A DNA stretch of 61,570 bases, counting the filler, from Sphacelaria rigidula (Eukaryota): NCBI GenBank assembly GCA_964200075.2. It is 9 parts of 9 records of this genome, joined end to end, with 100 filler letters (N's around TTAATTAATTAA, not from the genome) between each part and the next. Parts side by side here need not be neighbours in the genome. Positions count along the whole stretch, not along the records: positions 34,263 to 41,014 come from CAXNAA020018251.1; 8 more parts are not named here. One strand, 5' to 3'. Shown here piece by piece: positions 6,754 through 54,818 of the stretch. Position 1 is the first letter of the stretch. Each line of letters begins with the position of its first letter. Both the position numbers and the translations under genes were made by a program. The notes beneath the pieces were generated by a model. That model searched no databases, had not been told where the DNA came from, and saw only the letters and a list, made by a program, of their open reading frames with translations.

Positions 6754-6853
6754 NNNNNNNNNNNNNNNNNNNNNNNNNNNNNNNNNNNNNNNNNNNNTTA
6801 ATTAATTAANNNNNNNNNNNNNNNNNNNNNNNNNNNNNNNNNNNNNNNNNNNN
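6754..6853. other. Artificial contig spacer
   Basis: N44-TTAATTAATTAA-N44. Confidence 0.98.
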
Positions 6854-13606: not shown

Positions 13607-13706
13607 NNNNNNNNNNNNNNNNNNNNNNNNNNNNNNNNNNNNNNNNNNNNTTAATTAATTAANNNNNNNNNNNNNNNNNNNNNNNNNNNNNNNNNNNNNN
13701 NNNNNN
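13607..13706. other. Artificial contig spacer
   Basis: N44-TTAATTAATTAA-N44. Confidence 0.98.
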
Positions 13707-20458: not shown

Positions 20459-20558
20459 NNNNNNNNNNNNNNNNNNNNNNNNNNNNNNNNNNNNNNNNNN
20501 NNTTAATTAATTAANNNNNNNNNNNNNNNNNNNNNNNNNNNNNNNNNNNNNNNNNNNN
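20459..20558. other. Artificial contig spacer
   Basis: N44-TTAATTAATTAA-N44. Confidence 0.98.
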
Positions 20559-27310: not shown

Positions 27311-27410
27311 NNNNNNNNNNNNNNNNNNNNNNNNNNNNNNNNNNNNNNNNNNNNTTAATTAATTAANNNNNNNNNNNNNNNNNNNNNNNNNNNNNNNNNN
27401 NNNNNNNNNN
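27311..27410. other. Artificial contig spacer
   Basis: N44-TTAATTAATTAA-N44. Confidence 0.98.
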
Positions 27411-34162: not shown

Positions 34163-34262
34163 NNNNNNNNNNNNNNNNNNNNNNNNNNNNNNNNNNNNNN
34201 NNNNNNTTAATTAATTAANNNNNNNNNNNNNNNNNNNNNNNNNNNNNNNNNNNNNNNNNNNN
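34163..34262. other. Artificial contig spacer
   Basis: N44-TTAATTAATTAA-N44. Confidence 0.98.
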
Positions 34263-34439
34263 CGAAAACAGGATCAGTGGGTCACATTCTCATCCACCTT
34301 GAGGTGTGGCTTGCTCTGTTAACGAATACTTTGACAGGGGTAGGGGGGGGCGGGGGAGGCAGCAAACGTGTTTCACTGAAACTCGGTCAAATCCGTCGAA
34401 CACCAGAGTTTTGCGACAATTATGTCGAAATTAATTCCA

Positions 34440-35360
34440 CTTGGTTCGGTAGCTCTAAACAAACAGAAAGCATCAAGCTCTGCGAACGTGTTCGTCGAGT
34501 TCGGCGTTGCCAAACACGAAGGAGAATGCTCAAATTTGTTCCGAAAATCCGGGGATAGGCCAATTTATTCCCCGAATTGCCTCTTTTCCCTCTTTGGTGC
34601 CGGAAAGTGATGCATTGTGAGGCATTGTGATGCATTGCGATGGGTAAAGGTTTGTGCCCGGGGAAAATATCTGAAACGTCCTAGCTCTAGGTTTTCCATT
34701 TTCGCAGAATTGTCGATTTCCGGTGATCAGGGGGCATCACTCAACGTGCGTCATAGTACCTTGATCGTAACGTATGTACACCAAATTTTGGGAGATTTCT
34801 TTTAAAACGTATCTCGATGGGTTAATCAAGCAGAAGAAGAAAAAAACGTTCTCGTCGAGTACGGCGTTGCCGAACACAGAAATATGGGCGAAATTTGTTC
34901 CGAAAACTAGGGGGTAGGCCATTTTCATCCCCGGATTCGTTTTTGGCAAAACGGACTGCACTAGTGTCATACACAGTTTTATCGAAAGAGAAGGCCTGAA
35001 ACGTCCCAGGTGTTCCATTTTGGTAGTCATTATCGATTTCTGGTGAAAAATGAATGATTAGGGGAACCACTCAACGTGCGTGACAGAGTGCCTTAATCAT
35101 AACCGATGTGCACCAATTTTTGGGAGATTACTATCAAAACGTATTAGAATGGATCAAATAAGAAAAAGAAGAAAACGTTAGTTTTCGTCGAGTACGGCGT
35201 CGCCAAACACTGACTTAATGGCGAAATTTGTTCCGAAAATAGGGGATAGGGGATTTTCATCCCCGGATTGAATTTTTCTTCCCCTGTTCTTTTGGAAAAC
35301 GGACCGCGCTAATCTCATAAATATTTGTACCAAAGGAAAACGTCTGAGACGTCTAAGGTC
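34440..35360. repeat. Diverged tandem triplication, ~335-360-bp unit
   Basis: TCGTCGAGT(T/A)CGGCGT(T/C)GCC...AAATTTGTTCCGAAAA recurs at about 34492, 34852 and 35185. Confidence 0.85.
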
Positions 35361-35952
35361 GCGAGAAATCAACTGCTGCGTAAAGTGTACCGTAATTGAA
35401 ACAGAGGGTGTTTTGGCCGCATTTTTACGTCAATAGAGCCATACTCCACATCTACTCCTGCAACGTGGTTTGATTATTTTTCAATATTGAAAAGCTTGGA
35501 TGGTATAAGATGAAGTTTTTTACTCCGGATACTCTGGTCATTGCTGTCCGTGTCGTCGTTCCCACGAACCAGAGTTTTTCCCGTCAGGTGCCTTAAGCAT
35601 ACCTTAATTGGTACGTTTACTCAATGTAATAAGTATAAAAACAAAACGCTATTTACCGCGACGCAGCAACAATAACCATTCAGGGGCATTGCGGCGACAG
35701 TGGGACGAGCTCCGATGAGGTCGTTGTAAGGAGCGTCAACCACTTGGCTTTCCTGCTTGTCTCAAGATTTGTGTGCTCGACTCGCACCAACGTCGCCGGG
35801 TAACTCGGGGAGGAAACACCATTCGAAGGGTAGATGGTAAATGCGTTGCGATTGTTTGCACGACGTTTTGCCCTGATATTACCTATCCCAGCGTATCAGC
35901 AAGGTCGAACGACTTCTGATTCACGCGTGAGGAAAGACAAACGATGACTTAC

Positions 35953-36364
35953 CGTCGCCGACAATGCGCATGGCGTCTGAATCCAGGTTCCTGTACACCC
36001 TGCACGATATAGCCTTCTCTGGGCCGAACAGCTGTTGCCCCGCCGCTACCCTATGGTTGCCATCGAGCACCCTGTATTCAGCACATGCCATTTGCTCCGG
36101 CGTTGCGTTCTCGTCGCCGAGTGAAGTGCTAATTACCAATGCTGGTGGCTTGTGGTTCAGCCACCCGTTAATCGTTATCGATTTGATCACGTTATCGAGT
36201 TCTCGTGGATTTAACTCGCGAGACAACGCCGTCCGCGCGATCTGTTTCAGCGGGATGTCGTAAGTCCCGAGGCTGCATTTTTTGCCCAAAAGTCGGTCTA
36301 ATTCCCCGTCCGACGGCAGCGCCTCATCTGGCGATGAACGGGCCTGTTCGGCCGCCGTGGCCAT
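35953..36364 (-). CDS. First exon of a ParB/Sulfiredoxin-fold (ParB N-terminal-like) protein
   Basis: ATG at 36364; DIPLKQI...SRELNPRELDNVIKSITINGW...PPALVI...YRVLDGNHRVAA...ISCRVY; GTAAGT donor at 35952. No convincing downstream exon found. Confidence 0.8.
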
Positions 36365-37133
36365 GTTCCTCTCACGCTACAGGTCGTTCTACCGCCTAAT
36401 TGTGTCTACCACCCCCTGTAGCACCAGCGTGGCAGTATAGTTCGGTTGTGGTCATTGGAGGGGGGGGAGGGGGGGGTGATGAATATGTCCGGATGTTCAC
36501 CATCGAGGGGTCCATACGTTAGATACAACCCCACCCCCCTCCTTGCAGGTCTGGGTGCACGTACCCGGACGCCCGGAGTAAAACTCAAGGGCTGGCAAGC
36601 CATCCACCCTGTGAACCTTCAAATTCGTTCCGTCATCGTGCGATGGAGGCAAATGACAACCCGACGAGAAGGGCGGTTGGACACCGGCGGGAATGCCACG
36701 CACATACTGCTTCATACAGTCACAATCGTGGCGATGAGCGCATCGGATGACCGCTTGCGCAAGTTGCCTCGGCACCAAGCATGTGCACAGTCAGAAGCTC
36801 GAATAACATGTCTCTCAGATGCCAACACGTGAACAACCCTGATCTTAAACCTGCACATGCCTTTTCGCAACGGATTTGGTTGTTTATCCCGGAAAAACCT
36901 CAGGTCCTCAAAATCAGACCCACTAAGTTACGTTGGATGCTCAGGATGCGCACGTAGACCTGTGGCATTTTTTTCTGATCAATATTTTATGTATTTTGCC
37001 TTCGTTGAGGTGTCGAGGCGGCGCGATCGCGGTGCATACTCCCACCACCAACCCCACCCCCACACATCACAGTACATCGTCGGCTTCTATCCTCTACATT
37101 TCCATCTGAGACGACAGTCGTGTTCTTGCTATT

Positions 37134-37646
37134 ATGCCCGTGACAGATGCGGGTCGTCTCCTGTTCGCTCGTACCCCGCCAGGCGTTTCGTCCCCTCAGA
37201 CAGACGACCAGTGCCGCGTGGAGGGAATAGACAGCGCCCTTCTAGCCAACAACCAGCCGATCGTTGACACCGTGGCAGTCGCTGAACCACAAGTCCGTCC
37301 GAGACGATCAAAGCGTGTAACCGACCACGACGCCATGAATGACATGTTTTTCCGCTGCTGCGCGAGGCTGAACTGCGTGGAACGGTTCATGCGCGGCCGA
37401 TACGACGCGCAGCGACTGCGCATGGAACAGCAAGACTTCGCTCGTCTGACATCGTCGACGGCGCAATCGGCTAGGGTGCGCGAGCATGTCCCATACGAGA
37501 AACCCAGGAGAAGGATGGGCTCTATGTACGCTTCTGGCAGCTTGGTGTGCAACATTTTCTACGCTCATGTTTTCGGAGTGTCGAAGAATCTCATCAAAAA
37601 CGCAAAGCGCAATCCAAGAGCCCCCGCAAAGAGGGCGATGCTCTGA
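37134..37646 (+). CDS. Cys-rich ORF resembling the N-terminal region of Sola/DUF7869-type transposases (truncated or first exon only)
   Basis: CCARLNCVERF...QQDFARL...SLVCNIFYAHVFGVSKNLI fits the CC-x4-C...VCxxF(F/Y)xxx(L/F)G(I/V)S pattern I recall from these families. No DDD catalytic core is visible. Confidence 0.5.
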   Translation: MPVTDAGRLLFARTPPGVSSPQTDDQCRVEGIDSALLANNQPIVDTVAVAEPQVRPRRSKRVTDHDAMNDMFFRCCARLNCVERFMRGRYDAQRLRMEQQDFARLTSSTAQSARVREHVPYEKPRRRMGSMYASGSLVCNIFYAHVFGVSKNLIKNAKRNPRAPAKRAML

Positions 37647-37697
37647 GTACTGTTGTTGCCGTCATTGTTGTTATGATTGTCGTCGTTGATGATAAAA

Positions 37698-37699
37698 GT

Positions 37700-37753
<54 letters not shown>
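37698..37753. repeat. (GTT)n microsatellite
   Basis: Direct reading. Confidence 0.9.
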
Positions 37754-37755
<2 letters not shown>

Positions 37756-38692
37756 TTGTCAAGAGTCCAGCAATGCCGACCGCTACATCGCACACCCCAG
37801 ATTAACCCTTTGATCGCGAGGGTAGGTCACCTGCTGAATCGGCATCAATATTCACTTGAAAAAATTATGCCATCATCCAGGCGGGCTACCCCCACTGCGG
37901 TCTAAGGGTTCAGATGAATCATATATTGTTCTGGCCGGTGCGAACCCATTTTATTTTTGTATTAATATTTGCATTTGAGATTCACCCTGTAGGATTGAAC
38001 ATGCGGCCGGAATGACAAGGAATTTCGAAAGCAATACGAATCACGATACTGCACTCTGCTTGTACAGTCAATTTCAAACACGTTCCGCTTCCGCGCACGT
38101 TGTCTCCTGCGCGGGAGACAGAGGTCCCAAGACATTCGCCCCGCAGGCTCCTTCGTCGTGCAATTCGCGAGCGTTTATCAGATAATTGTTTTTTTTTCCA
38201 GATCCGTCCGGCCGCCTCCTTTCTTCACCGTTGGTCCCCGGTGTTTTTTATTCAGTAACTCGTTTTACATTGTGCCTCACCCCCTCATGTACCAAAACAA
38301 ATATCATCAGGATATAGTCTTTCTGAACATCGGCAAAATATTCGCTGTACAGTCGGCGAAGAAACCCTTTCTCTGATGAGAAGTCTCCCCACTGCTTCGC
38401 TCTAAATCTCAGGCTTTTCACCCAAAAGTCATCGAACAAAAATTATTCAGAAATCGTGAGTAAATTTCGGGTCACCGAACAAATGCTGTCGAAAAGACAT
38501 CTTATTGCGGCCGCAACGCGGGACCGGTAGTCGCAGCACGCCAGCCTCGTAGTCGCAGCACGCCACTAGATCAATTTCGAACTTGATTATTTACGTAATT
38601 TCAGCGCGTCGGACGAGTCATTACTCGCCGAAACGAGTGCAGTTGTCGGTGTTTTTAATACACACAACGAGCAATGAGTAGAATACTCCCCC

Positions 38693-38933
38693 TGACTGCT
38701 GCCGAGATAGCCCCCCCTCTAAACCGGCGAAAAAAGTGCACCGAGGCGATGATCATAGATGCCGTTTGAGCTGGTTTCGTGCTGCACGACGCCATTCATG
38801 TGGGCTGATTTTGGACTGCTACACGCCTCTCATGTGGGCGAAGTTGCTGCAAACGAGCCTAAGAGTGGAATCGCAGCCGGTTCGTCGGACGGTCTCCAGT
38901 GCACTTTTTGTGGGGGGGGCTATCTCGGCGTCA
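38693..38933. mobile_element. Small MITE-like insertion in the degenerate edge of the array
   Basis: Inverted ends GCCGAGATAGCCCCCCC..AAAAAGTGCAC / GTGCACTTTTT..GGGGGGGCTATCTCGGC; CTCCCC on both flanks (possible TSD). Confidence 0.55.
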
Positions 38934-39322
38934 CTCCCCTGTTCATTTTCCACAACAAGCAATGCGTCGAGTGCTCGCGCTAGTAGCTTGTCCACAAGCG
39001 GCAGTGGCTCGAGTATTTTTCGCATGACGTTTTTCACAATGAGCATACGACTCGAGGTCACGCCTTTTAAATTATTCCACAACGGGCGATGGCTCTGGTA
39101 CCCGCCGTATTACCTATTCGACAGCAAACACCAACTCGGGTACTCGCCTGTTTAGTTGTTCCGAGACAAGCAACGACTCGATTACTTGCATTTTCAAGTT
39201 CTCCACAACAAGCAAACATTCGAGTGCCCACCCTGTTGATATTTCGCACACCGGACGAGTCAGTAGTCGTCAAGACGAGTGAACTCGCGCTTTTCCCCTC
39301 AAAACACCACGAGCTTTGTTTT

Positions 39323-40940
39323 TCACAACGAGCAATGACTCGGGTGTTCTGGTCTTGATTTTTTTCTCACAACGAGCAATAAGTAGTGCGTTTCAGTCAT
39401 ATTGCTTTTAAAAACGAGTGATGACTCGTGTGCTGGAGTAATGTAATTTTATTTACAACAAGCAATGAGTCGTGTGCTCGAGTCCTTTGATTCTTGACAC
39501 AACAAGCAATAACTCGGGTGTTCGGGTGCTCGTCCTTTTTCACGACGACCAATGACCGTGTTCTAGAGTCCTCTTGTTTTTCTCACAAATAGCAATAACT
39601 CGGGCGCTCGAGTCACGATGTTTTGTTCACAACGAGCGATTACTCGTGCGCTTGGGTCACTATTTTTCGTCACAAAGATCGATGACTCTTTTACTCCAGT
39701 CCTGTACTTGTTTGTCACAACTCTCAATGACCCGTGTTCTATGGTCATGTATAATTGGTCACAACGAGTAATGGCTCGTGTGCTCAATTTTGTTTTGTTT
39801 TCGTAACAAGAGATGACTCGTGTTCCGGAGTATATTGTTTTATCACAACGAGCAATGGCTCGGGAGTTCAGGTCTTGTTTTTCTTTGCACAACGAGCAAT
39901 GACTCGTGCGTTTCAGTCATTTCGTCTTTGTCCCAACGAGCAATGACTCGTGTTCCAGAGTGTATTTTTCGTCACAACGAGCAATGGCCCGGATGTTCGA
40001 GTCTTTTTTATTTTTTCACAACTAATAATGATCCGTGTTGTAGGGTCATGTATTATTGGTCACAACGAGCAATGACTCGTGTGCTCGAGATTATTTGATT
40101 TCGCTACGAGCGATGACTCGTGTCCTAGAGTATGTTTTTTTGTCACAACGACCAATGACCCGGGTGCTCGAGTCATGATGCTTTGTCAACAACTAGGAGT
40201 GACTGGTGCGCTTGAGTCATTCTGTTCCGCCACAAAGATCGATGACTCTTGTGCTCCAGTCAGGTATTTTTTGTCACAACTAACAATGACCCGTGTTCTA
40301 AGTAATGTGTTATTGGTCACAACGAGCAAGGACTCGTGTGCTCGAGGGTTTTTGTTTTCGCAACGAGCGCTGACTGGTGTTCCGGAGTATAGTTTTTGTC
40401 ACAGGAAGCAATGACTCGGATGTTCAGGTCACGCATGATTTGCACAACGAGCAATGACCCGTGTTCTAGAGTCCTCTTGTTATTGTCACAAAGAGCAATG
40501 ACTCGGGTGCTCGAGTCACGAAGTTTTGTTCACAACGAGCAATTACTCGCGCGCTTGGGTCACTTTTTTTTGTCACAATGATCGATGACTCTTTTACTCC
40601 AGTCCTGTATTTGTGTGTCGCAACTAACAATGACCCGTGTTCTATGGTCATGTATAATTGGTCTCAACGAGTGATGACTCGTGTGCTCGAATTTTTTTGT
40701 TCTCGTAACAAGAGATGTCTCGTGCTCCGGAGTATATTGTTTTATCACAACGAGCAATGACTCGGGTGTTCAGGTCTTCGTCTTTTTTCACAACGAGCAA
40801 TGAGTCGTGCGTCCCAGTCATTTCGTCTTTGTCCCAACGAGCAATGACTCGTGTTCCAGAGTGTATTTTTCGTCACAACGAGCAATGGCCCGGGTGTTCG
40901 AGTCTTTTTTATTTTTTCACAACTAACAATGACCCGTGTT
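39323..40940. repeat. Tandem array of ~37-38 units of ~43 bp with a palindromic core and a ~900-bp higher-order duplication
   Basis: Core TCACAACGAGCAATGACTCGTGT followed by a T-rich variable part; 39541-40040 is repeated at 40443-40940. Degenerate units extend back to about 38660. Confidence 0.92.
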
Positions 40941-41014
40941 TATAGCCTCTACCAGACGATCTGGACAAGAGGGCTATTCAGTGAGGGACTTCTCCAGAAT
41001 CGACAGGCCTCACG

Positions 41015-41114
41015 NNNNNNNNNNNNNNNNNNNNNNNNNNNNNNNNNNNNNNNNNNNNTTAATTAATTAANNNNNNNNNNNNNNNNNNNNNNNNNNNNNN
41101 NNNNNNNNNNNNNN
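41015..41114. other. Artificial contig spacer
   Basis: N44-TTAATTAATTAA-N44. Confidence 0.98.
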
Positions 41115-41859: not shown

Positions 41860-43750
41860 CGGCACGCATGTGTCCCGCGGAATCGGCCGTCATAGGCCCT
41901 TCGGCAGCGAACACCCATGGCATGACTCCAGCTCTCCCTCAAGCTCTACATCAATAGCATCAGCCGTTTCCCGTGGCAGTACCTCGTTTAGGTGATCGTA
42001 CGATTGATGGAACAAATTAATGTTGGCGGGACCATTGAGGCGTAAAACGCCAGGGGCTAGCACAGTATTGGCAAATTCGTTTGCAGGTGAATCAAACTCA
42101 CGGTCGAACGAGCTTGGGGACGACGAGAGGCGAGTAGCATGGGTTGTGTTCACGTTCCCTTCGCGAGGGAAAACCAAATCCTGCCCACTATTCATGGGTA
42201 CACGTACTCCTGACTTATGTACCAGTGGTGGGTGGCCATTGTCAGCAGCCACCATGAGGGGGAAAACGTTAAAATCTAGCATAGGTACGTGTGCTACTTT
42301 TCCGAGATGTAGTCGGAAGTCAAATACCTCAGAGTGAAAAAGTAAAGGCAAACTACCATACCCCTCGATGGGAAGTGCTGTACCATTTGCAATGGTCAAC
42401 CCGACGATACCGTCGGTCTTAACATAGTTGGACATGCCCTCCTTCATTGGAGTAGTCATACACGACGACCCACTATCCGCTATCCATATTTCACCCCCCT
42501 CATGGTTTGCTTGTGCCAACATAGCCTTCTCCCTAGACAACAATCAAAGATACAATTTCGCCTGATGTTTATTGTGCAATAAATGCCCCGTTGGTGTGGT
42601 TGAATCTCATGTCTTGTACCGCCACGGCTGATGTCTCCTGTCGAGGGCAGTCATTCGCAACATGACCAAGCTGGTCACAACTGTCACACTTCGCCTTTGG
42701 ACAGTAGCGGCTGATGTGTCCGGGCTCATCACAGCGCCAACACTTTCGAGTTTCCAATCTTGACGCAGGGGGTACAGTACCCCCTGGTTTCGGTGCCATC
42801 GTCGAAGCAGAAGTCGATGTCGGCTCGTTGTTGTTGTTTATTGGTCCGGCCGGAGCGATTCCCTCGCCCCCTGCCGTTGCCACCATCACGCTTGCCACGA
42901 CCATTACCGCGGCTGGTCGCGACGAACAGAGCACGGCTGCTGCTTCCCTTCCCGGTCGGTTTCAGGGGCAAGTATTTCCCTCTGACAGCTGCCCTCATTT
43001 GCGCTCGCGAAACAACGTGTCCAGCAGAATAGCGCATGGGGTCGAGAACGGTGTCATATTCAGGAGGTAATACTGACATCATCTTGACAGTTACCACCTT
43101 ATCTGAAACGCCACAACCTTTTACATGCATCTCCGCGCCAACGTTCTCGATCTCAAGGAACGCATTTTCGGGGCCAGTTCCCGTCTTGTGCTGTATAGCA
43201 TTCACGTTTCAAGCAACGCCACCCCAGCACCCATAGAAACCGGAGAGTAGTGATCCTCCCATTGTGACCACGCGAGTGAAGGCGAACCACACCGTAGAAC
43301 GATTTGAAAACTGACATCGTCTTTCATTGCCCCCAACAAAAAGTGGTATGCCAGCTTTGCCGCTATAACCTCACGGCGTGAGATCCCGAACTCCGTCGGT
43401 CTCGCAGACATCATAGGACATACTTGAATTCGTAAATTTGTAGTGAGCGCTACGTCCAACCCATGTAAAGAAAGAGTATACGTGGTTTTACTCCACATAG
43501 CCCAGTCACTCAACTTTCTAGAAAAACGCATCGGTTTGACATCAAGCTTGCCGAAATATGAATACGAGAGGTTGGGTAGGTCATTCGTTTCATCATCATG
43601 CTCAGCTACATCATCATCATGTTCCATATCACGGAACATGTCACCACCGCCGGAATCAAAATCGAATCCAAGGCCACCTGGACCAAATAACGACTATCTA
43701 TCTACGTGGGGGTATTCACCTGAAGCACGTTCACGCCAATCTTCCACCAC
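41860..43750 (-). mobile_element. Decayed Ty1/Copia gag-protease-preintegrase fragment
   Basis: Gag (LPPEYDTV), two CCHC knuckles (CWRCDEPGHISRYC, CDSCDQLGHVANDC), protease WIADSGSS, GAG-pre-integrase HQSYDHLN...CHGCSLPK. Frameshifted. Confidence 0.9.
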
Positions 43751-43847
43751 ATCTCCTGGTCGAACACCGTCAGAGCGTGTTCGGCCACCGAGCTCATGAT
43801 CAACTCCACTAGTCGTTGACCTACGTGCAGCCCTGCTGCGTACAGGC

Positions 43848-44103
43848 TATGACGCCAGTAGATTGCTAGTACTGCAGCGTTTAATGCTGTTGAGGAACTC
43901 CCCAGTTCCACTGGCCTCAGGTTTCAGTTGTTGGCCTTCACAACACCTTTTATTATCCTGGAGTCACCTTCCAAGGCACCCACCTAGACACGCCAGGGCA
44001 TCAACCTAGTGTCCCCGGTCATTACCCAGACCATCACTACAAATCCCAAGTCATCATCTATATCATCACCATATACTCAACGTGACGGCGTGATTTCGTC
44101 GCA
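43848..44103 (-). repeat. 3' LTR of a chromodomain Gypsy element
   Basis: TGCGACG...CGTCATA on the minus strand, preceded by a short G-rich tract after the pol stop; homologous to 47077-47283. Confidence 0.8.
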
Positions 44104-44182
44104 GCACCCCCAAAGCGCGTTGGACGAGATTCAAGCAACAAGCTTGACACTCAGAAAAATAACGCCAACCCGATTGAGCAAG

Positions 44183-47076
44183 TCACAACTGAATCCCAAA
44201 CTCACGCGTGATACTAGCAGCAATGGAACGAGTCACTCGCACCTTACGCAACTCCTTTTTGAGAAGTTCTGGAGCGGCCTCGAGAATATTGTTAAAAGGC
44301 TCCCACGTACGCTCCTCGACTTCAAAACCTACCCAGTCGATCAAGACGATCAACGAACGACCCTCTGCCTCTGCCACGCGAACAATCCCAGCCATCTGAA
44401 ATTGCCCCTGGATGAAAGCGTGCTGAAACACATCCTTTACGTTTGCCGTTACATCAAGCTGTGAGTCTGCATAAAAACGCAGACGAGCTCCATGGGCGGT
44501 CTGAACACGACCCGAAACAATGTTTTGGATCTCAAACACATGCGGGTGATGAGCACCAACCACTCCACGGACCAGTCCACGTCGCCATCACTTTAGGCGT
44601 AACTCCCGGGCGACGCACGCGTGCATACAAAACATAACCGCCTGCCCCGAAATTCGGCAATATCAGCCCCGACGAGGACCCCTCACGTCTACGCGCACGT
44701 TCAGCGGCAATACGCTCCTGCACTTGAACGTGGAAACGTTCCTGCAACTCCAAAACTCCTTGCAACGCACGCTTGAGTTGCGCATCGTCTAAAACATCAC
44801 AGTTCCACTCCCCCGCCGATGAGGACGCCAACACCGAGAAAGACGTCCGGGGTGTAAGACCAAACATCACGTGATACGGCGTACTATCCTACCGACGGCG
44901 ATATGCTGTATTTAACGCCCATTGCACCGCGGGCAACACGTCCACCCACTCGTTCACCTCTCGACGCTGCTTGAGAAGAGTAGATCGAAGAGCACGAACT
45001 ACTTCCTTGAACATGCGTTCGCACGTGCCGTTAGACCACGAAGAATATGCCACCGCAAACCGGTAAACAAGGTGTAATGCCTCACGAAGCGGGTCAAGAT
45101 CGTGTTCTTGAAATGCGTGGCGGTATCACTCACCCACACACGGGGCACCCCCAAAGTTTTACACCAATCCAGCAAAGATGCAGCGGTCGATTCGGCAGTA
45201 CACACTGCTACTGGTTCCAGAGCCACAAAGTAGCTCAAATCATCCATGATTACCAAAATGTATCGAATCCAGCATCCTCCAACAAACCTTGGGAGGCTAG
45301 CGGGCCACTCTCGCCCACGTACAAGAAGTCAAAATGAACGACCTCATTTGGCGTGGTCCCATGGACCGTTTCACCGAGCGGGCGGGGAACAACATCGCCC
45401 GCCCTAGAATCAGCACAGTGAAGACACAGTTGGACAAACTCGCACACCTGAGTTTCCATTCCCTGCCAAACACAAAACGTTTGCAAGCGCACGAGCGTTG
45501 CAGCCACACCGCGATGCCCGGCATCGCGCATGTGCGCACAAATCATCAAACGTATGTGAAATTTTTCGTCGGAGCTGGGAATCCACAATACGTTTCGGCC
45601 ACGCACATGCACACAAAACAAACGCTCATTGTCCAAATAGTAGCACCAACATCCATCCGACTCGAAGGATTGCACATCCGCATCACTGGCCCCAACTTCT
45701 TTTCGTTGAGCTTGGCGGACCACAGATTTCAATGGCATCGAATCATCCGCTTCACACGGACCAGGTACAGTCACAGCTCGCGCGGGCAGAGTGGGAATAT
45801 TTACCCAGCGCGACAGCAAGTCACGCCACGCGTTATGTTCACGCGAAACATGACAAATCGTGTACTGATACTGGTCTAATACACCTTTCTACCCCTCCAG
45901 TTGCTGTGCCAACGCCTTCGACACAGACGTCACGCATGCCTCCGGATTGAAAATGTACTCGGTGATTCGTGAAATTGTGCACGCCATTCCACAATAGATG
46001 ATCGAGACGACGAAAAGTGCTCACGATGGCAAAACCTGCCTTGTCAATGGTTGCCCAACGCATCCGTGAACCCTTGAAACTATCACTCAGAAAATCCAGC
46101 GGTTCATGCGTCATATCTTCAACCGGCAACCGTCGTTGCATTTCTGCATCAGGCACCTGCGTGACAAAACTACCCCAATGACACTCGGATGCATCGGGAA
46201 ACATCAGCACCTGGTAACCGGGGCGGGGATGGAACAGCGTCACGGCATGAGTGACCAGATCCTTCGCTGCCGCCCATGCCTGCAGCCTGTCCTCCGTCCA
46301 CGATGCGGGCGGAAAAACGCGGTTTTTGGCCACCTGCTTGGTGCGCCTTGCAGCCCCCACCATGAGTTCTTCTAGGAAAACGCGCAAGGGCGTCACTACT
46401 TCAGCCATACGTGGCAACGAGGTACCCAACCAGTTCATTGCGTGCAGGAATTGCATTAGTTCTTCTGCTGTTTCTGAACGCCGCATGTCAGACAAACCTC
46501 GCAAGCGGACCGGGTCATACGAGACGCGGCTGTGTGAATATACTTTCCCACACCACACTAATTCACTAGCAAAAAAGGTACACTTGTGGGCAGCTGCAAA
46601 CAGGCCAACACTCTCTGAGCGAGCCAAGATTGCATCAAGCGTATCCAACAGTTCGTGTTCCGTATCCGCGAAGAAAAAGACACCATCCACCCAGATCTTG
46701 CATTTCAAGCCATCTAAAAGGTCTACCGTGACACCTTGAAAATAGGACGTAGCATTCAACACGCCTTGCGGTACTCTTTGCGGGGTAAACATGCCAAACG
46801 GAGTCGTGCTGGTGAATATCTCTTGTGCCTCTTAGGCCAACGGCATTTGCCAGTACCCCTGTAGGAGGTCCAACTTCCCGAAGCATCGCGCGCTCAACAG
46901 GTCTATCATGTCGGATTCCTGATTAGGCATGACATTTGGCGACTTCTCCACCTGATCATTGACGGCTCCGTAATGGCTGACAAGACGGAAAGAGTCCTTC
47001 TCCGGCACCGTAATCGCTGGACTGGACCACACCGCCTGTAGATTCCTGAAAACCATCCCAAACGCCACAAGAGCTC
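44183..47076 (-). mobile_element. Decayed Ty3/Gypsy pol (RT-RNaseH-integrase-chromodomain)
   Basis: LDLLQGYWQMPL, VPQGVLNATSYFQ, IWVDG, MFPDASECHWG, HMRDAGHRG..CLHC, WVSDTATHF, WTGPW, DWVGFEVEERTWEP. Several stops and frameshifts. Confidence 0.93.
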
Positions 47077-47866: not shown

Positions 47867-47966
47867 NNNNNNNNNNNNNNNNNNNNNNNNNNNNNNNNNN
47901 NNNNNNNNNNTTAATTAATTAANNNNNNNNNNNNNNNNNNNNNNNNNNNNNNNNNNNNNNNNNNNN
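47867..47966. other. Artificial contig spacer
   Basis: N44-TTAATTAATTAA-N44. Confidence 0.98.
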
Positions 47967-50900
47967 GCTTTCAACGACGCTCTGACTCGAAATTTCGTGC
48001 AACAAATGGCCCAAAATACCCCCCCCCCTATCGTAGGATGACTCGAGAGTGGTGTGTAGATCCCGCTGTGGCCGTTTCTGCTGTTGAAATATACAATGTC
48101 TTCGGTGAGATCAGTGATTCGTCTCAAGGCGGAGCTGTCGATGGGTTGGGCCGAGATGGGCAAGCGAGACAGAAAATCAGCGTTTACGTTTTGAGGTCCT
48201 GTTCGATACTTTAGCGTGAAGTTATAAACAGACAGGATTTCAAAATAGTGTTGAACCCGGGGCGTTGTGTTCGGCCATTTTGGCGAGGTTTTCTAAACAC
48301 TTATGATCTGATAAATCACGAACGGAATATCACACAAATACTGACCGAGATGTCTCACTTCCCAAACAATCACACCGGCCTCTTGCTCCATGGTCGACCA
48401 GTTTTGTTCGTTTGGGTAGGTGGTTCGAATCAAATATACAATGGGGCGAATATTAGCATCTGGTTCTTCCTGTTCCAACGTGTAGCCAAACCCAATTTTG
48501 GAGGTATCCGTGTGAAGTCGGAACGGATGTGAACTATTCTCAGCGGCCGATCAGTCTGGGGAAAACAAGAACGGTGGTCGCGAAAGTGTGTCAGGCAGTT
48601 GACGTCCAGGTTTCTCCGTTTCCGAAGTAAACGCAAATTTCACTCCTTTTTTGAGAAGGGAGGTGAGAGGTTTGAGGATTTGGGCTAGGTTCGGCAAATA
48701 CTGTCGGTACTAGCTCAAACCGCCGAGCAAGAAGCGCAGTTGAGATATATCGCGTGGCATGGGCATATCTGTAAGTGCGGCAACCTTGTTGAGGTTTGGA
48801 CTACGACCTTCAGAAGTGATGCAATGGCTCAGGAATACCATGCTGGTCGCTCCGAGGCGGGATTTGGACGGGGCAAGTTTCAAGTGGTGTTGTTCGAAGC
48901 GAGCGAAGAAAGACGCCAAGCGCTCGACGTCTTCGGAAGAGGTGCTTCGGGATAATACTGCGTCATCGAGGTACATATAGCACTTGCACAATCCATCAGT
49001 CACACAAAACATCACACGTTCAAATGCACCGAGGGCGCCGGCGGCACCTTGTGGTATTACCAACCATTCGTACAGGCCTAACGGTGTCCAAAACGCCGTC
49101 AGTTCTTTGGATTGCGGATCTATCACAAGTTGGTGGTAGCCGGACTGCATGTCGAAATCCGAAAATACTTTACCCCCGCCGAGAGAGTCAATGATTTCAT
49201 CTATCCGGGGAAGAGGCAGACGTGCGATTTTGGTGACTGCGTTCAATCGTTGGCGATTGACTGTCAGTCTGATCTTACAGTTCTTCTCCCGGACGACAAC
49301 AAGCGGCGAGGCCCACGGGGACAGGGAGTGCCTAATTAAACCGGCAGATAAGTATCCATCGAGGACTCCCCGAATTTTATCCGCGAATAGGGGGTTTGAA
49401 CGGTACGGACGCGTAGCGATAGATGGAGTGCCATCAGGAATTTTGATCTTGAACGGTGTAGTGGTGCAACGGCCTAGATCTATGGGCGCCTTGGAAAACC
49501 GTTCAAAACATCTTGTCAGGATATAACGCAGCCTATCGATCACCGTCGGAGCCCAACCCTCACCAGATAGATCAAAAGCAATGTGTCGCAAATGTGGGGG
49601 GATATGGTCTTATAAACGTTGAAGCCTAACACGCTGCTCTGGCGATAATCTACCTAGTAATGCAGTTGGGGGGTTTCGGTCTGGTGCATTAGACGCATCG
49701 CCCACTATCATAAGGCAAGTCTTGTCTAACGGGAGAGAGTCCGCGTTGATCGAGGTGTCTGGTGACGCTTGCCGTTCGGTCGCCAGACATACGGTTGACA
49801 AGTCCATCCGTTGGAGGGGCGCCTGAGCAAAGTCCAACAACTGGCCGGGAAGTATATCGAAACATGCAGAAGACGTGAGACGGATTGATTGTCTACCTTC
49901 GTGAACGAGTACTTCGGTCTGGTCAAAGGCACCCACATCATCAGCGGACTGATTGAGGTGGATGAATTTGACCGAGTATTGTCTACTGAGGGCAGAGGGC
50001 CCGTTCCGTCTCACAAGGTTTACATGTATGAGTTGGGGTTCAGGGGACAAGGAGGCTACGTTTTCGCCAACATAGTACAGTCGGAAAGCATCACCTGTTT
50101 GTGTTGGATCATCGATATAGGCATGAGCCCCCGAAGCAGTGTCGTGATATCCCAATTTCAATCTGCCAGTCTTGGGATGATGCAAAACAAGTTTGTCCGA
50201 CGTGTATGTGTGAGTGGAAAGCCGTAGCCAACTATCACGCCCCAGCAAAACATCAACCGACATGGAATCATCGGGCACTATATGCGCCAACACGTACAAC
50301 CGAGCAGTCGGACTCATGTCATCGAACAATTGCACACTAAATCTCACTGATCGATCAACCGTAAGTGGAGTGGAGGCACCAAATCCGCCGAAAACACGAG
50401 GGGAAACCGTAGAAACGTAATGCGTGTCCGCAGCCCCCACGTTGATCATTCGTTGGCAGCAGCTGGCGGTGATGAAAGTTTGAGGCGAGCCTGAATCAGG
50501 CAATGCAAGAGCCATAAAGGGCATGTTGCATGCATTCCACGTTGTACACCTAGTTTCGTTGTGAAAGAGGAATCATCCATGATTGCAGTTCCGCTGACTA
50601 GATCCGGTCCAAAATATGTCAAGAGACCTGTGGACCAACCGCGCTTGTGATTGTAAGCGGTTGCGCTGAAAAATACACGCTGATAACCCTTCGGAGCAAG
50701 ATTTCTGTCCGAAGGTGAGTTTGGGCACGAAGCGTCTTCTGCAGTTGTTGAGAAATCTATCGAGTGTTGAATTTCGTGTACTGTAAGGGATGGACGACGC
50801 TTGGGGAGGGCAGTTGTCGTGGCTGGCCGCGACAACTATTGCGTTTGGTTGGAGATACCCTGGTCGGCAGCAACAAGTAGCGAAGCGTCAGTTTGCGAAG

Positions 50901-54718: not shown

Positions 54719-54818
54719 NNNNNNNNNNNNNNNNNNNNNNNNNNNNNNNNNNNNNNNNNNNNTTAATTAATTAANNNNNNNNNNNNNNNNNNNNNNNNNN
54801 NNNNNNNNNNNNNNNNNN
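54719..54818. other. Artificial contig spacer
   Basis: N44-TTAATTAATTAA-N44. Confidence 0.98.

Follow-up and report, generated by a model that had tools for sequence, protein, structure and literature searches.

A ParB/Srx-fold first exon and its divergent partner ORF in Sphacelaria rigidula: probable fragment of a multi-copy, transposon-type element

What kind of genetic unit sets a spliced gene for a ParB/Srx-fold protein head-to-head with a second open reading frame (ORF) in the genome of the brown alga Sphacelaria rigidula? The question is raised by a window of 61,570 nucleotides (the whole stretch of DNA analysed, from assembly GCA_964200075.2), in which only positions 34263-41014, the contig CAXNAA020018251.1, carry both ORFs. 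A preliminary description of this DNA proposed a ParB-carrying eukaryotic transposon, internally deleted in this copy, whose second gene resembles a Sola-type transposase. Our analysis favors a related reading, to which we give a probability of about 0.6: the locus would be an assembly fragment of a multi-copy, transposon-type brown-algal element, in which two outward-facing genes, each represented by its first exon, diverge from a control region between them. The gene pair is laid out as follows, with positions counted along the window.

35947..35952, minus strand: GTAAGT 5' splice donor of the ParB-like gene (ACTTAC on the plus strand), phase 1 intron; the last exon base is 35953.
35953..36364, minus strand: exon 1 of the ParB/Srx-fold gene (P0001), 137 codons, ATG at 36364-36362.
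36365..37133, no strand: divergent spacer of 769 bp, the presumed shared promoter region.
36457-36470 and 36529-36542: G-run/C-run inverted repeat of 14 nt in mid-spacer, arms 58 nt apart.
37134..37642, plus strand: partner ORF (P0002), 170 codons, interpreted as the first exon of another spliced gene.
37643..37648, plus strand: CTGAGT in this copy, where the contigs of sequencing runs X1 through X3 have the donor GTGAGT.

This geometry is the one given in the preliminary description, namely a 137-codon exon running to a GTAAGT donor on the minus strand and a partner ORF on the plus strand roughly 770 bp away. Specifically, the ORF within the ParB-like exon (35954-36364) encodes 137 residues from the start Met to D137, and one extra exon base follows at 35953. 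A model of P0001 built with AlphaFold2 (AF2) from a 70-row alignment reaches a predicted local distance difference test (pLDDT) score of 85.5 and a predicted template modeling (pTM) score of 0.76. When this model is compared with the PDB by Foldseek, there are 28 matches at E ≤ 1e-3, headed by ParB-CDP (6sdk, E 8.8e-6) and followed by Noc, PadC, Srx, SerK/SbnI and KorB. Superposition with VIA-align yields Z scores of 10.0-10.6 for the ParB/Noc/PadC group, with a root-mean-square deviation (rmsd) of 1.8-2.5 Å over 85-92 residues, and Z scores of 7.4-9.1 for Srx and SerK/SbnI. A viral structure library adds 69 matches at E ≤ 1e-3, and most of the named ones are ParB-like proteins of phages and giant viruses. 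Given this agreement, we regard the ParB/Srx fold predicted by the model as established.

Across the 70 aligned sequences of the family, G102 is invariant, and R49, S62, G67, W68, D101, N103, H104 and R105 are nearly so. The D101-G-N-H-R105 box falls at the junction of strand 97-101 and helix 103-113. ParB proteins present an Arg, then S-I...G...P, then a box formed by strand-Gly-x-x-Arg-helix, and canonical ParB CTPases have GERR in that second box. P0001 agrees with this motif order. Its box, however, reads DGNHR instead of GERR (GxRR), and N103 occupies the position of the catalytic Cys of the sulfiredoxin GGCHR box in at least 90% of the aligned sequences. The original characterization of the protein as a ParB/Srx-fold domain that is neither a sulfiredoxin nor a canonical ParB is therefore upheld by the AF2 model, by Foldseek and VIA-align, and by the alignment.

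Searches at the sequence level assign the exon to no described family. P0001 matches no Pfam family even at E ≤ 10, and this includes ParBc (PF02195), a family that the preliminary description had named for comparison. ParBc is likewise not matched at E ≤ 0.1 in 41 homologs of P0001, among which the only sub-threshold Pfam matches are to DUF6551, DUF1015, GmrSD_N and DUF3723. P0001 has no match by sequence in the PDB, the phycocyanin matches of the profile search (E ≥ 0.015) being spurious, and a word search for longer relatives found none.

The exon is nonetheless a member of a broad brown-algal family. An exhaustive HMMER search with P0001 recovers 80 library representatives at E ≤ 1e-3 (best E 2.4e-41), of which 16 lie at E ≤ 1e-10, with a best identity of 61%; the count of 80 refers to clusters at 50% identity. 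Twenty of the 80 were looked up, 14 of them plain Logan or ENA records, and the six that carry organism names are all brown algae: Sphacelaria (2), Choristocarpus, Pylaiella, Cladosiphon and Ectocarpus. All six are annotated nuclear genes. Full-length relatives of P0001 have 300-880 residues. The alignment used above joins 69 of the 80 matches to the query. Eleven rows were left out: five long repetitive proteins matched over short repeated stretches and judged spurious (P0052, P0063, P0070, P0071 and P0081), the 68-aa deletion form P0014, four short fragments (P0037, P0056, P0073 and P0077), and P0051, in which the ParB part sits at a cut C-terminal end. This alignment was too diverse for the scans for related loci, and these used a 12-row alignment in its place. 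The resulting metagenome scan returned 18 loci (L001-L018), all of them prokaryote-type ORFs belonging to a uniform family of about 370 aa in which a ParB-like box, VLDGNHRVAAA, comes after a conserved GSVGRYHDFD motif. Only the box is common to these ORFs and the algal family, and the matches span 17-81 residues around it, which makes the 18 loci uninformative on linkage of the two Sphacelaria ORFs.

Does the gene end with this exon? In 60 of the 69 aligned homologs, [GCSR][KE] stands right after the D137 column, which is the read-through of N|GT-RAG, most library members being plain ORF calls that run into the intron. Of the nine exceptions, five are annotated gene models (P0004, P0016, P0019, P0031 and P0044), and from the D137 column on these have the common sequence xxN[D/E/A]...R..[Y/F]D within 50-700 further residues. 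Because 60 homologs show the read-through signature and five models splice on at the same point, the exon boundary 35953|35952 is conserved family-wide, and the gene continues beyond it. The splice site that had been proposed at 35952 is thus corroborated by the homologs. With 80 clusters and a conserved intron, the family is broad in brown algae, and its occurrence is no oddity of Ectocarpus.

The continuation of the gene lies elsewhere. A tblastn search with the full set of homologs located no part of the gene in the window other than exon 1, and a hidden Markov model (HMM) of the C-terminal continuations of six gene models (three distinct proteins plus P0085, P0087 and the P0019/P0031 isoforms) found nothing in the window at E < 0.8. 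To the left of the exon, 1.7 kb of contig remains, most of it repeats. Among the joints listed, none falls at 35953 or 37643 in any run. Run X6, which is RNA by guess only, covers parts of both ORFs with zero cover over 36521-37075 and is unreadable as expression evidence.

What, then, is the partner gene? With its stop codon the ORF occupies 37134-37646. It has one near-length homolog, P0088, at 51% identity over 172 columns, and the two coincide in both start Met and stop position. An unbroken frame at 51% identity argues for a real coding exon. Judged by this homolog and by the family of P0001, both ORFs are more than chance occurrences. The description of the partner as Cys-rich was overstated, since there are five Cys in 170 residues (27, 75, 76, 81 and 139), although four of them, a CCx4C cluster plus one, are conserved in P0088. 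The protein also has a basic tail, KRNPRAPAKR. Its proposed kinship with Sola/DUF7869 transposase N-termini gained no support: DUF7869 (PF25273) is not matched at E ≤ 10 in P0002 and gives no match in P0088. A literature search on DUF7869 found no paper. Such a domain could lie in the unassembled downstream exons of the partner gene. The only Pfam match of P0002, to YabA (E 0.042), is noise, and a search for longer relatives found none. In a feature-based atlas, the nearest neighbors of P0002 are unnamed clusters of eukaryotic proteins, rich in arthropods (183-194 features in common, score 0.93), but the recognition value of this placement is low and we take it as a lead only. When the atlas search was limited to named clusters, residues 60-170 gave no usable match.

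The end of the partner ORF is more informative. Its stop codon lies in CTCTGAGTA, where the in-frame TGA (37644-37646) is part of a GTGAGT donor. Position 37643 is C in this copy, versus G in all six covering contigs of X1 through X3, where G accounts for the full depth in each run: 149.8 of 149.8 in X1 (three contigs), 180.4 of 180.4 in X2 (one contig) and 6.64 of 6.64 in X3 (two contigs). A G at this position creates CT|GTGAGTA, a canonical donor, and the stop of P0088 at the matching aligned position fits the donor reading. The partner ORF is thus likewise a first exon, and the donor G of the partner gene has been lost in this copy, barring an assembly error at this base.

The internal deletion suggested for this copy finds no support. 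Each of the two ORFs runs up to a splice donor, beyond which the contig extends for 1.7 kb on one side and 3.4 kb on the other before breaking off in tandem repeats, so the rest of both genes is simply unassembled here.

Both ORFs and the spacer are also present in several copies. The contigs of X1 through X3 are short (95-350 bp), and X1 and X2 represent one sample. These runs leave no bin of 35300-38600 uncovered, and most of the covering contigs differ from the window by 1-10%. Variant contigs of 90-99% identity span both ORFs and the spacer, covering all of 35633-38600, and at least two variants can occupy one interval (for example, 38088-38273 and 36852-37056). Relative to exact-match contigs, summed depth is raised about 1.5-9 times in the core, depth not being equal to copy number. 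The spacer is as repeated as the two ORFs, and the repeated unit thus spans both genes. Some copies are damaged. P0014 is a copy with residues 24-102 deleted, and one contig of X6 joins 35826 to 37181. The 1354 bp that it skips contain the ParB-like exon, the entire spacer and 47 bp at the start of the partner ORF. With AG..CC at its ends, this joint is not splice-like, and the contig probably derives from a deletion-bearing copy of the element. The family beyond the window displays similar behavior. P0040, a more distant member, represents a cluster at 90% identity whose 45 members are spread over different ENA contigs, the longest reaching 1.6 Mb. This is how an active repeat looks, and at least one lineage of the ParB-like family seems to have multiplied recently in some genome. 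Diverged copies at different places, defective ones included, are a mark of transposable elements, and they are found here.

The contig that holds the pair offers little unique sequence beyond it. Its further features, and those of the window around it, are these.

34263..41014, no strand: unplaced 6752-bp contig with the whole finding inside, bounded by linkers 34163-34262 and 41015-41114.
34263..35300, no strand: tandem repeat, period ~333-360 bp, ~3 copies, reaching the left contig end (repeat families D10, D11 and D12).
35300..35632, no strand: high-copy repeat in the presumed intron of the ParB-like gene (word depth).
37698..37759, no strand: (GTT)n microsatellite, 20.7 copies.
37742..37963, no strand: very high-copy short repeat, core ~37802-37870 (word depth, loose ends).
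38613..40940, no strand: minisatellite of 42-44-bp units running towards the right contig end (repeat family D1, 33 copies; Tandem Repeats Finder, TRF).
6754-6853, 13607-13706, 20459-20558 and 27311-27410: four of eight artificial linkers, each 44 N + TTAATTAATTAA + 44 N, ~6.85 kb apart.
34163-34262, 41015-41114, 47867-47966 and 54719-54818: the remaining four linkers, of the same type.

The window consists of pieces of about 6752 bp, and the spacing of the linkers is the pattern of size-sorted unplaced contigs chained into a pseudo-chromosome. Because the linkers are artificial, neighborhood across any of them means nothing. Within the contig, a low-copy core (35633-38600) holds both ORFs and is broken by the (GTT)n tract and the very high-copy short repeat. 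Summed word depth at 35300..35632 is 14,000-105,000 in X1 and X2, versus about 30-60 for exact single contigs. At 37742-37963 it climbs to 623,000 in X1 and 1,300,000 in X2. Loose ends are numerous at 37802-37870 and there are joints that go back by 42-70 bp, a pattern that suggests a very abundant short tandem or interspersed genomic repeat. This is probably an unrelated nested repeat. Rfam has no match anywhere in the contig, this repeat included, and the other scanned ORFs of the contig have no Pfam match. Repeat blocks do bracket the gene pair, as first reported, but these are tandem arrays unrelated to one another, which do not form terminal inverted repeats (TIRs), and no long inverted repeat brackets the ORF pair within the contig.

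Other contigs of the window carry retroelement sequences. On the adjoining contig, 41893-46831 (minus strand) is a Gypsy-type retroelement with Pol beta-barrel, zf-CCHC, reverse transcriptase, RNase H, integrase H2C2 and chromodomain (sub-threshold) segments, which are spread over several frames and so probably decayed. A further unplaced contig has a reverse-transcriptase ORF at 48713-49609 on the minus strand (RVT_1, E 4e-16).

Is there a described element to which such a gene pair could belong? A literature search on ParB-like transposon accessory genes of algae returned a single article (Dinatale et al., 2025; PMC12477816, cited here from excerpts throughout). It describes Sola1-1_Ec32 of Ectocarpus, a giant DNA transposon of 21,549 bp. 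Its termini read AACCG...CGGTT, its TIR is imperfect and 282 bp long, and its target-site duplication (TSD) measures 4 bp; it is annotated in 1989 copies, two of them intact. Opposite in strand to its transposase, this element encodes a 1104-aa protein that combines a ParB-like domain with a DNA N4C/N6A (N4-cytosine/N6-adenine) methyltransferase (MTase). The authors propose that such proteins bind their own transposon and modify it epigenetically. ParB-type accessory proteins on giant algal transposons were thus first reported in 2025, and the idea of a ParB-carrying transposon is not new. The accessory role envisaged for the ParB-like protein has a direct published precedent here, whereas mobility of the Sphacelaria locus is something that we infer. 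The copy analyzed here is fragmentary and carries one disabling change or more, and the locus opens no new category.

Several observations weigh against assigning the locus to a transposon-type element. A transposase domain, TIRs and TSDs were all not found within the 6.75-kb contig; compared with a published element of 21.5 kb, the element ends would fall outside it. P0002 belongs to no Pfam family and has P0088 as its single homolog. Copies at 90% identity or more look few by a rough reading of depth, and the Logan contigs, at 95-350 bp, do not show the two ORFs joined to each other in any further copy. The closest Ectocarpus member at hand, P0051, matches P0001 at only E 1.1e-5, such that the locus may represent a different lineage from the published Ectocarpus gene. 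Finally, the long relative P0087 (876 aa, Cladosiphon) has no methyltransferase domain by Pfam or by PDB sequence search. An AF2 single-sequence model of its residues 596-876 has a pLDDT of 34.9. Viewed by eye, this tail may resemble the layout of N6_N4 MTases, with degenerate motifs.

How well do other explanations account for the same data? The one that survives best keeps the mobile element and changes its kind: the locus could belong to an element outside Sola1 (KDZ, EnSpm/Plavaka or a non-autonomous giant element), with the partner ORF as a second accessory gene. We consider this a possible outcome, clearly on the unlikely side of even odds. It gains from the absence of any transposase-family match for P0002, DUF7869 included, and from the statement, in the excerpted text of PMC12477816, that several giant Ectocarpus families carry non-transposase genes only. 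The same text lists one Sola-1 family in the Ectocarpus curation, versus 80 clusters of the ParB-like family at 50% identity, which suggests more than one host element. Moreover, the ParB-like accessory genes of red algae reside in Plavaka and not in Sola elements: Petroll et al. (2025; bioRxiv 10.1101/2025.02.11.637652, also cited from excerpts) describe PAG3, an accessory protein of red-algal Plavaka that joins a ParB-like domain to a 2-oxoglutarate (2OG) oxygenase and whose gene is adjoined by tandem arrays of inverted repeats. Set against this, no element of brown algae other than Sola1 has a published ParB-like gene, as far as the excerpts extend, and its genes likewise lie on opposite strands. 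The atlas neighbors of P0002 (0.93) are compatible with a widespread transposon protein, which is weak evidence.

An ordinary, lineage-specific pair of host genes with a bidirectional promoter, duplicated a few times and immobile, is a distinctly less likely explanation. Intact first-exon ORFs with conserved starts, a conserved intron position, the lack of any TIR or TSD seen in the contig and the low copy number at high identity would all suit such a pair. They must be reconciled, however, with an unplaced contig that has repeats at both ends, with diverged variants of spacer and ORFs within the same runs, and with the existence of deleted copies and lost-donor copies. Such a pair would also leave aside the 45 near-identical copies of P0040 on different contigs and the fact that the published Ectocarpus relative is transposon-borne (PMC12477816). 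That the locus was left behind by an integrated giant virus (a phaeovirus or another nucleocytoplasmic large DNA virus, NCLDV) with a ParB-like gene is very improbable. Giant viruses do have proteins of the ParB/Srx fold, and the structural matches include those of Orpheovirus, Pithovirus, Bodo saltans virus, Sylvanvirus and Gaeavirus. Against a viral origin, scans of viral contigs gave no close relative (one distant motif-level match with the alignment, none with P0001 or P0002 alone), the ParB-like gene has a conserved spliceosomal intron, and every named relative is a brown-algal gene annotated as nuclear.

For the favored reading, a fragment of a multi-copy, transposon-type element, Sola1 would be the leading superfamily candidate, with other giant elements possible. 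How might such an element use its two genes? The minus-strand gene would supply a protein whose N-terminal ParB/Srx-fold domain, with its DGNHR box, binds nucleotides. Through this ParB-type module the accessory protein probably binds the element's own DNA, and it would then mark or modify that DNA, perhaps by methylation, so as to regulate or protect the element. The partner gene on the plus strand would be expressed from the same 769-bp spacer and would provide the transposase or another element function.

A candidate target for such binding lies on the same contig. Within the minisatellite, TRF reports 37.7 copies of a 44-bp unit at 39315-40939, and each unit carries the imperfect palindrome ACGAG-CAATGA-CTCGT. 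The 16-bp form of this imperfect palindrome, ACGAGCAATGACTCGT, has 20 matches at two or fewer mismatches, all within 38613-40852, versus 0.01 expected by chance. Because arrays of inverted repeats adjoin the red-algal ParB-like genes, the minisatellite may be regarded as a candidate protein-binding array, and it suggests a testable binding site. A far more general idea, which we consider unlikely, is that the transposon-borne ParB-type nucleotide switches of brown algae form a large and diversified family marked by a DGNHR box. They would load onto arrays of short palindromes in their own element (here the ACGAG-N6-CTCGT minisatellite) and thereby act as a eukaryotic, transposon-encoded analogue of bacterial ParB-parS, by which a giant transposon recognizes, marks or partitions itself.

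Among known systems, Sola1-1_Ec32 offers the closest parallel. As described in the excerpts, it too is brown-algal, has an N-terminal ParB-like domain encoded on the strand opposite a second gene, is rich in nested repeats, and exists mostly as fragments. The comparison is one by description, and it has differences as well: exon 1 alone is present here, such that an MTase part would not be visible, the AACCG...CGGTT termini and 282-bp TIRs fall beyond what this contig could hold, and the nearest Ectocarpus family member at hand is distant (E 1.1e-5). PAG3, likewise compared by description from excerpts, resembles P0001 in placing a ParB-like domain at the N terminus of a transposon accessory protein, and its inverted-repeat arrays find a counterpart in the 44-bp palindrome-bearing minisatellite about 1 kb beyond the partner ORF. 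PAG3 differs in superfamily, in fused enzyme domain and in algal lineage.

Similarly, prokaryotic and phage proteins have combined ParB-type modules with N6A or N4C MTases and have been transferred to algae. According to excerpts of Iyer, Zhang and Aravind (2015; PMC4738411), the ParB-linked N6A methyltransferases of algae and chytrids go back to the ParB-Tls loci of phages, with fusions of ParB, helix-turn-helix (HTH) and Dam domains in chlorophytes and chytrids. The prokaryote-type metagenome ORFs are like P0001 in their VLDGNHRVAAA box and unlike it outside the 17-81 residues matched. Srx and SerK/SbnI have the fold in common with P0001 (Z 7.4-9.1), whereas N103 replaces the catalytic Cys of Srx and the kinase C-terminal domain of SerK/SbnI is not seen. 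Bacterial ParB/Spo0J, Noc, PadC and KorB remain the best structural matches, with Z near 10 and an rmsd near 2 Å over about 88 residues. These CTP switches differ from P0001 in having GERR where it has DGNHR, in the Pfam ParBc match that it lacks, in the HTH and dimerization parts that are not visible in this contig, and in the spliced, eukaryotic nature of the algal gene. To this series of related systems, the Sphacelaria locus adds a confident structural model in which a ParB CTPase-like fold is predicted to carry a non-canonical DGNHR box.

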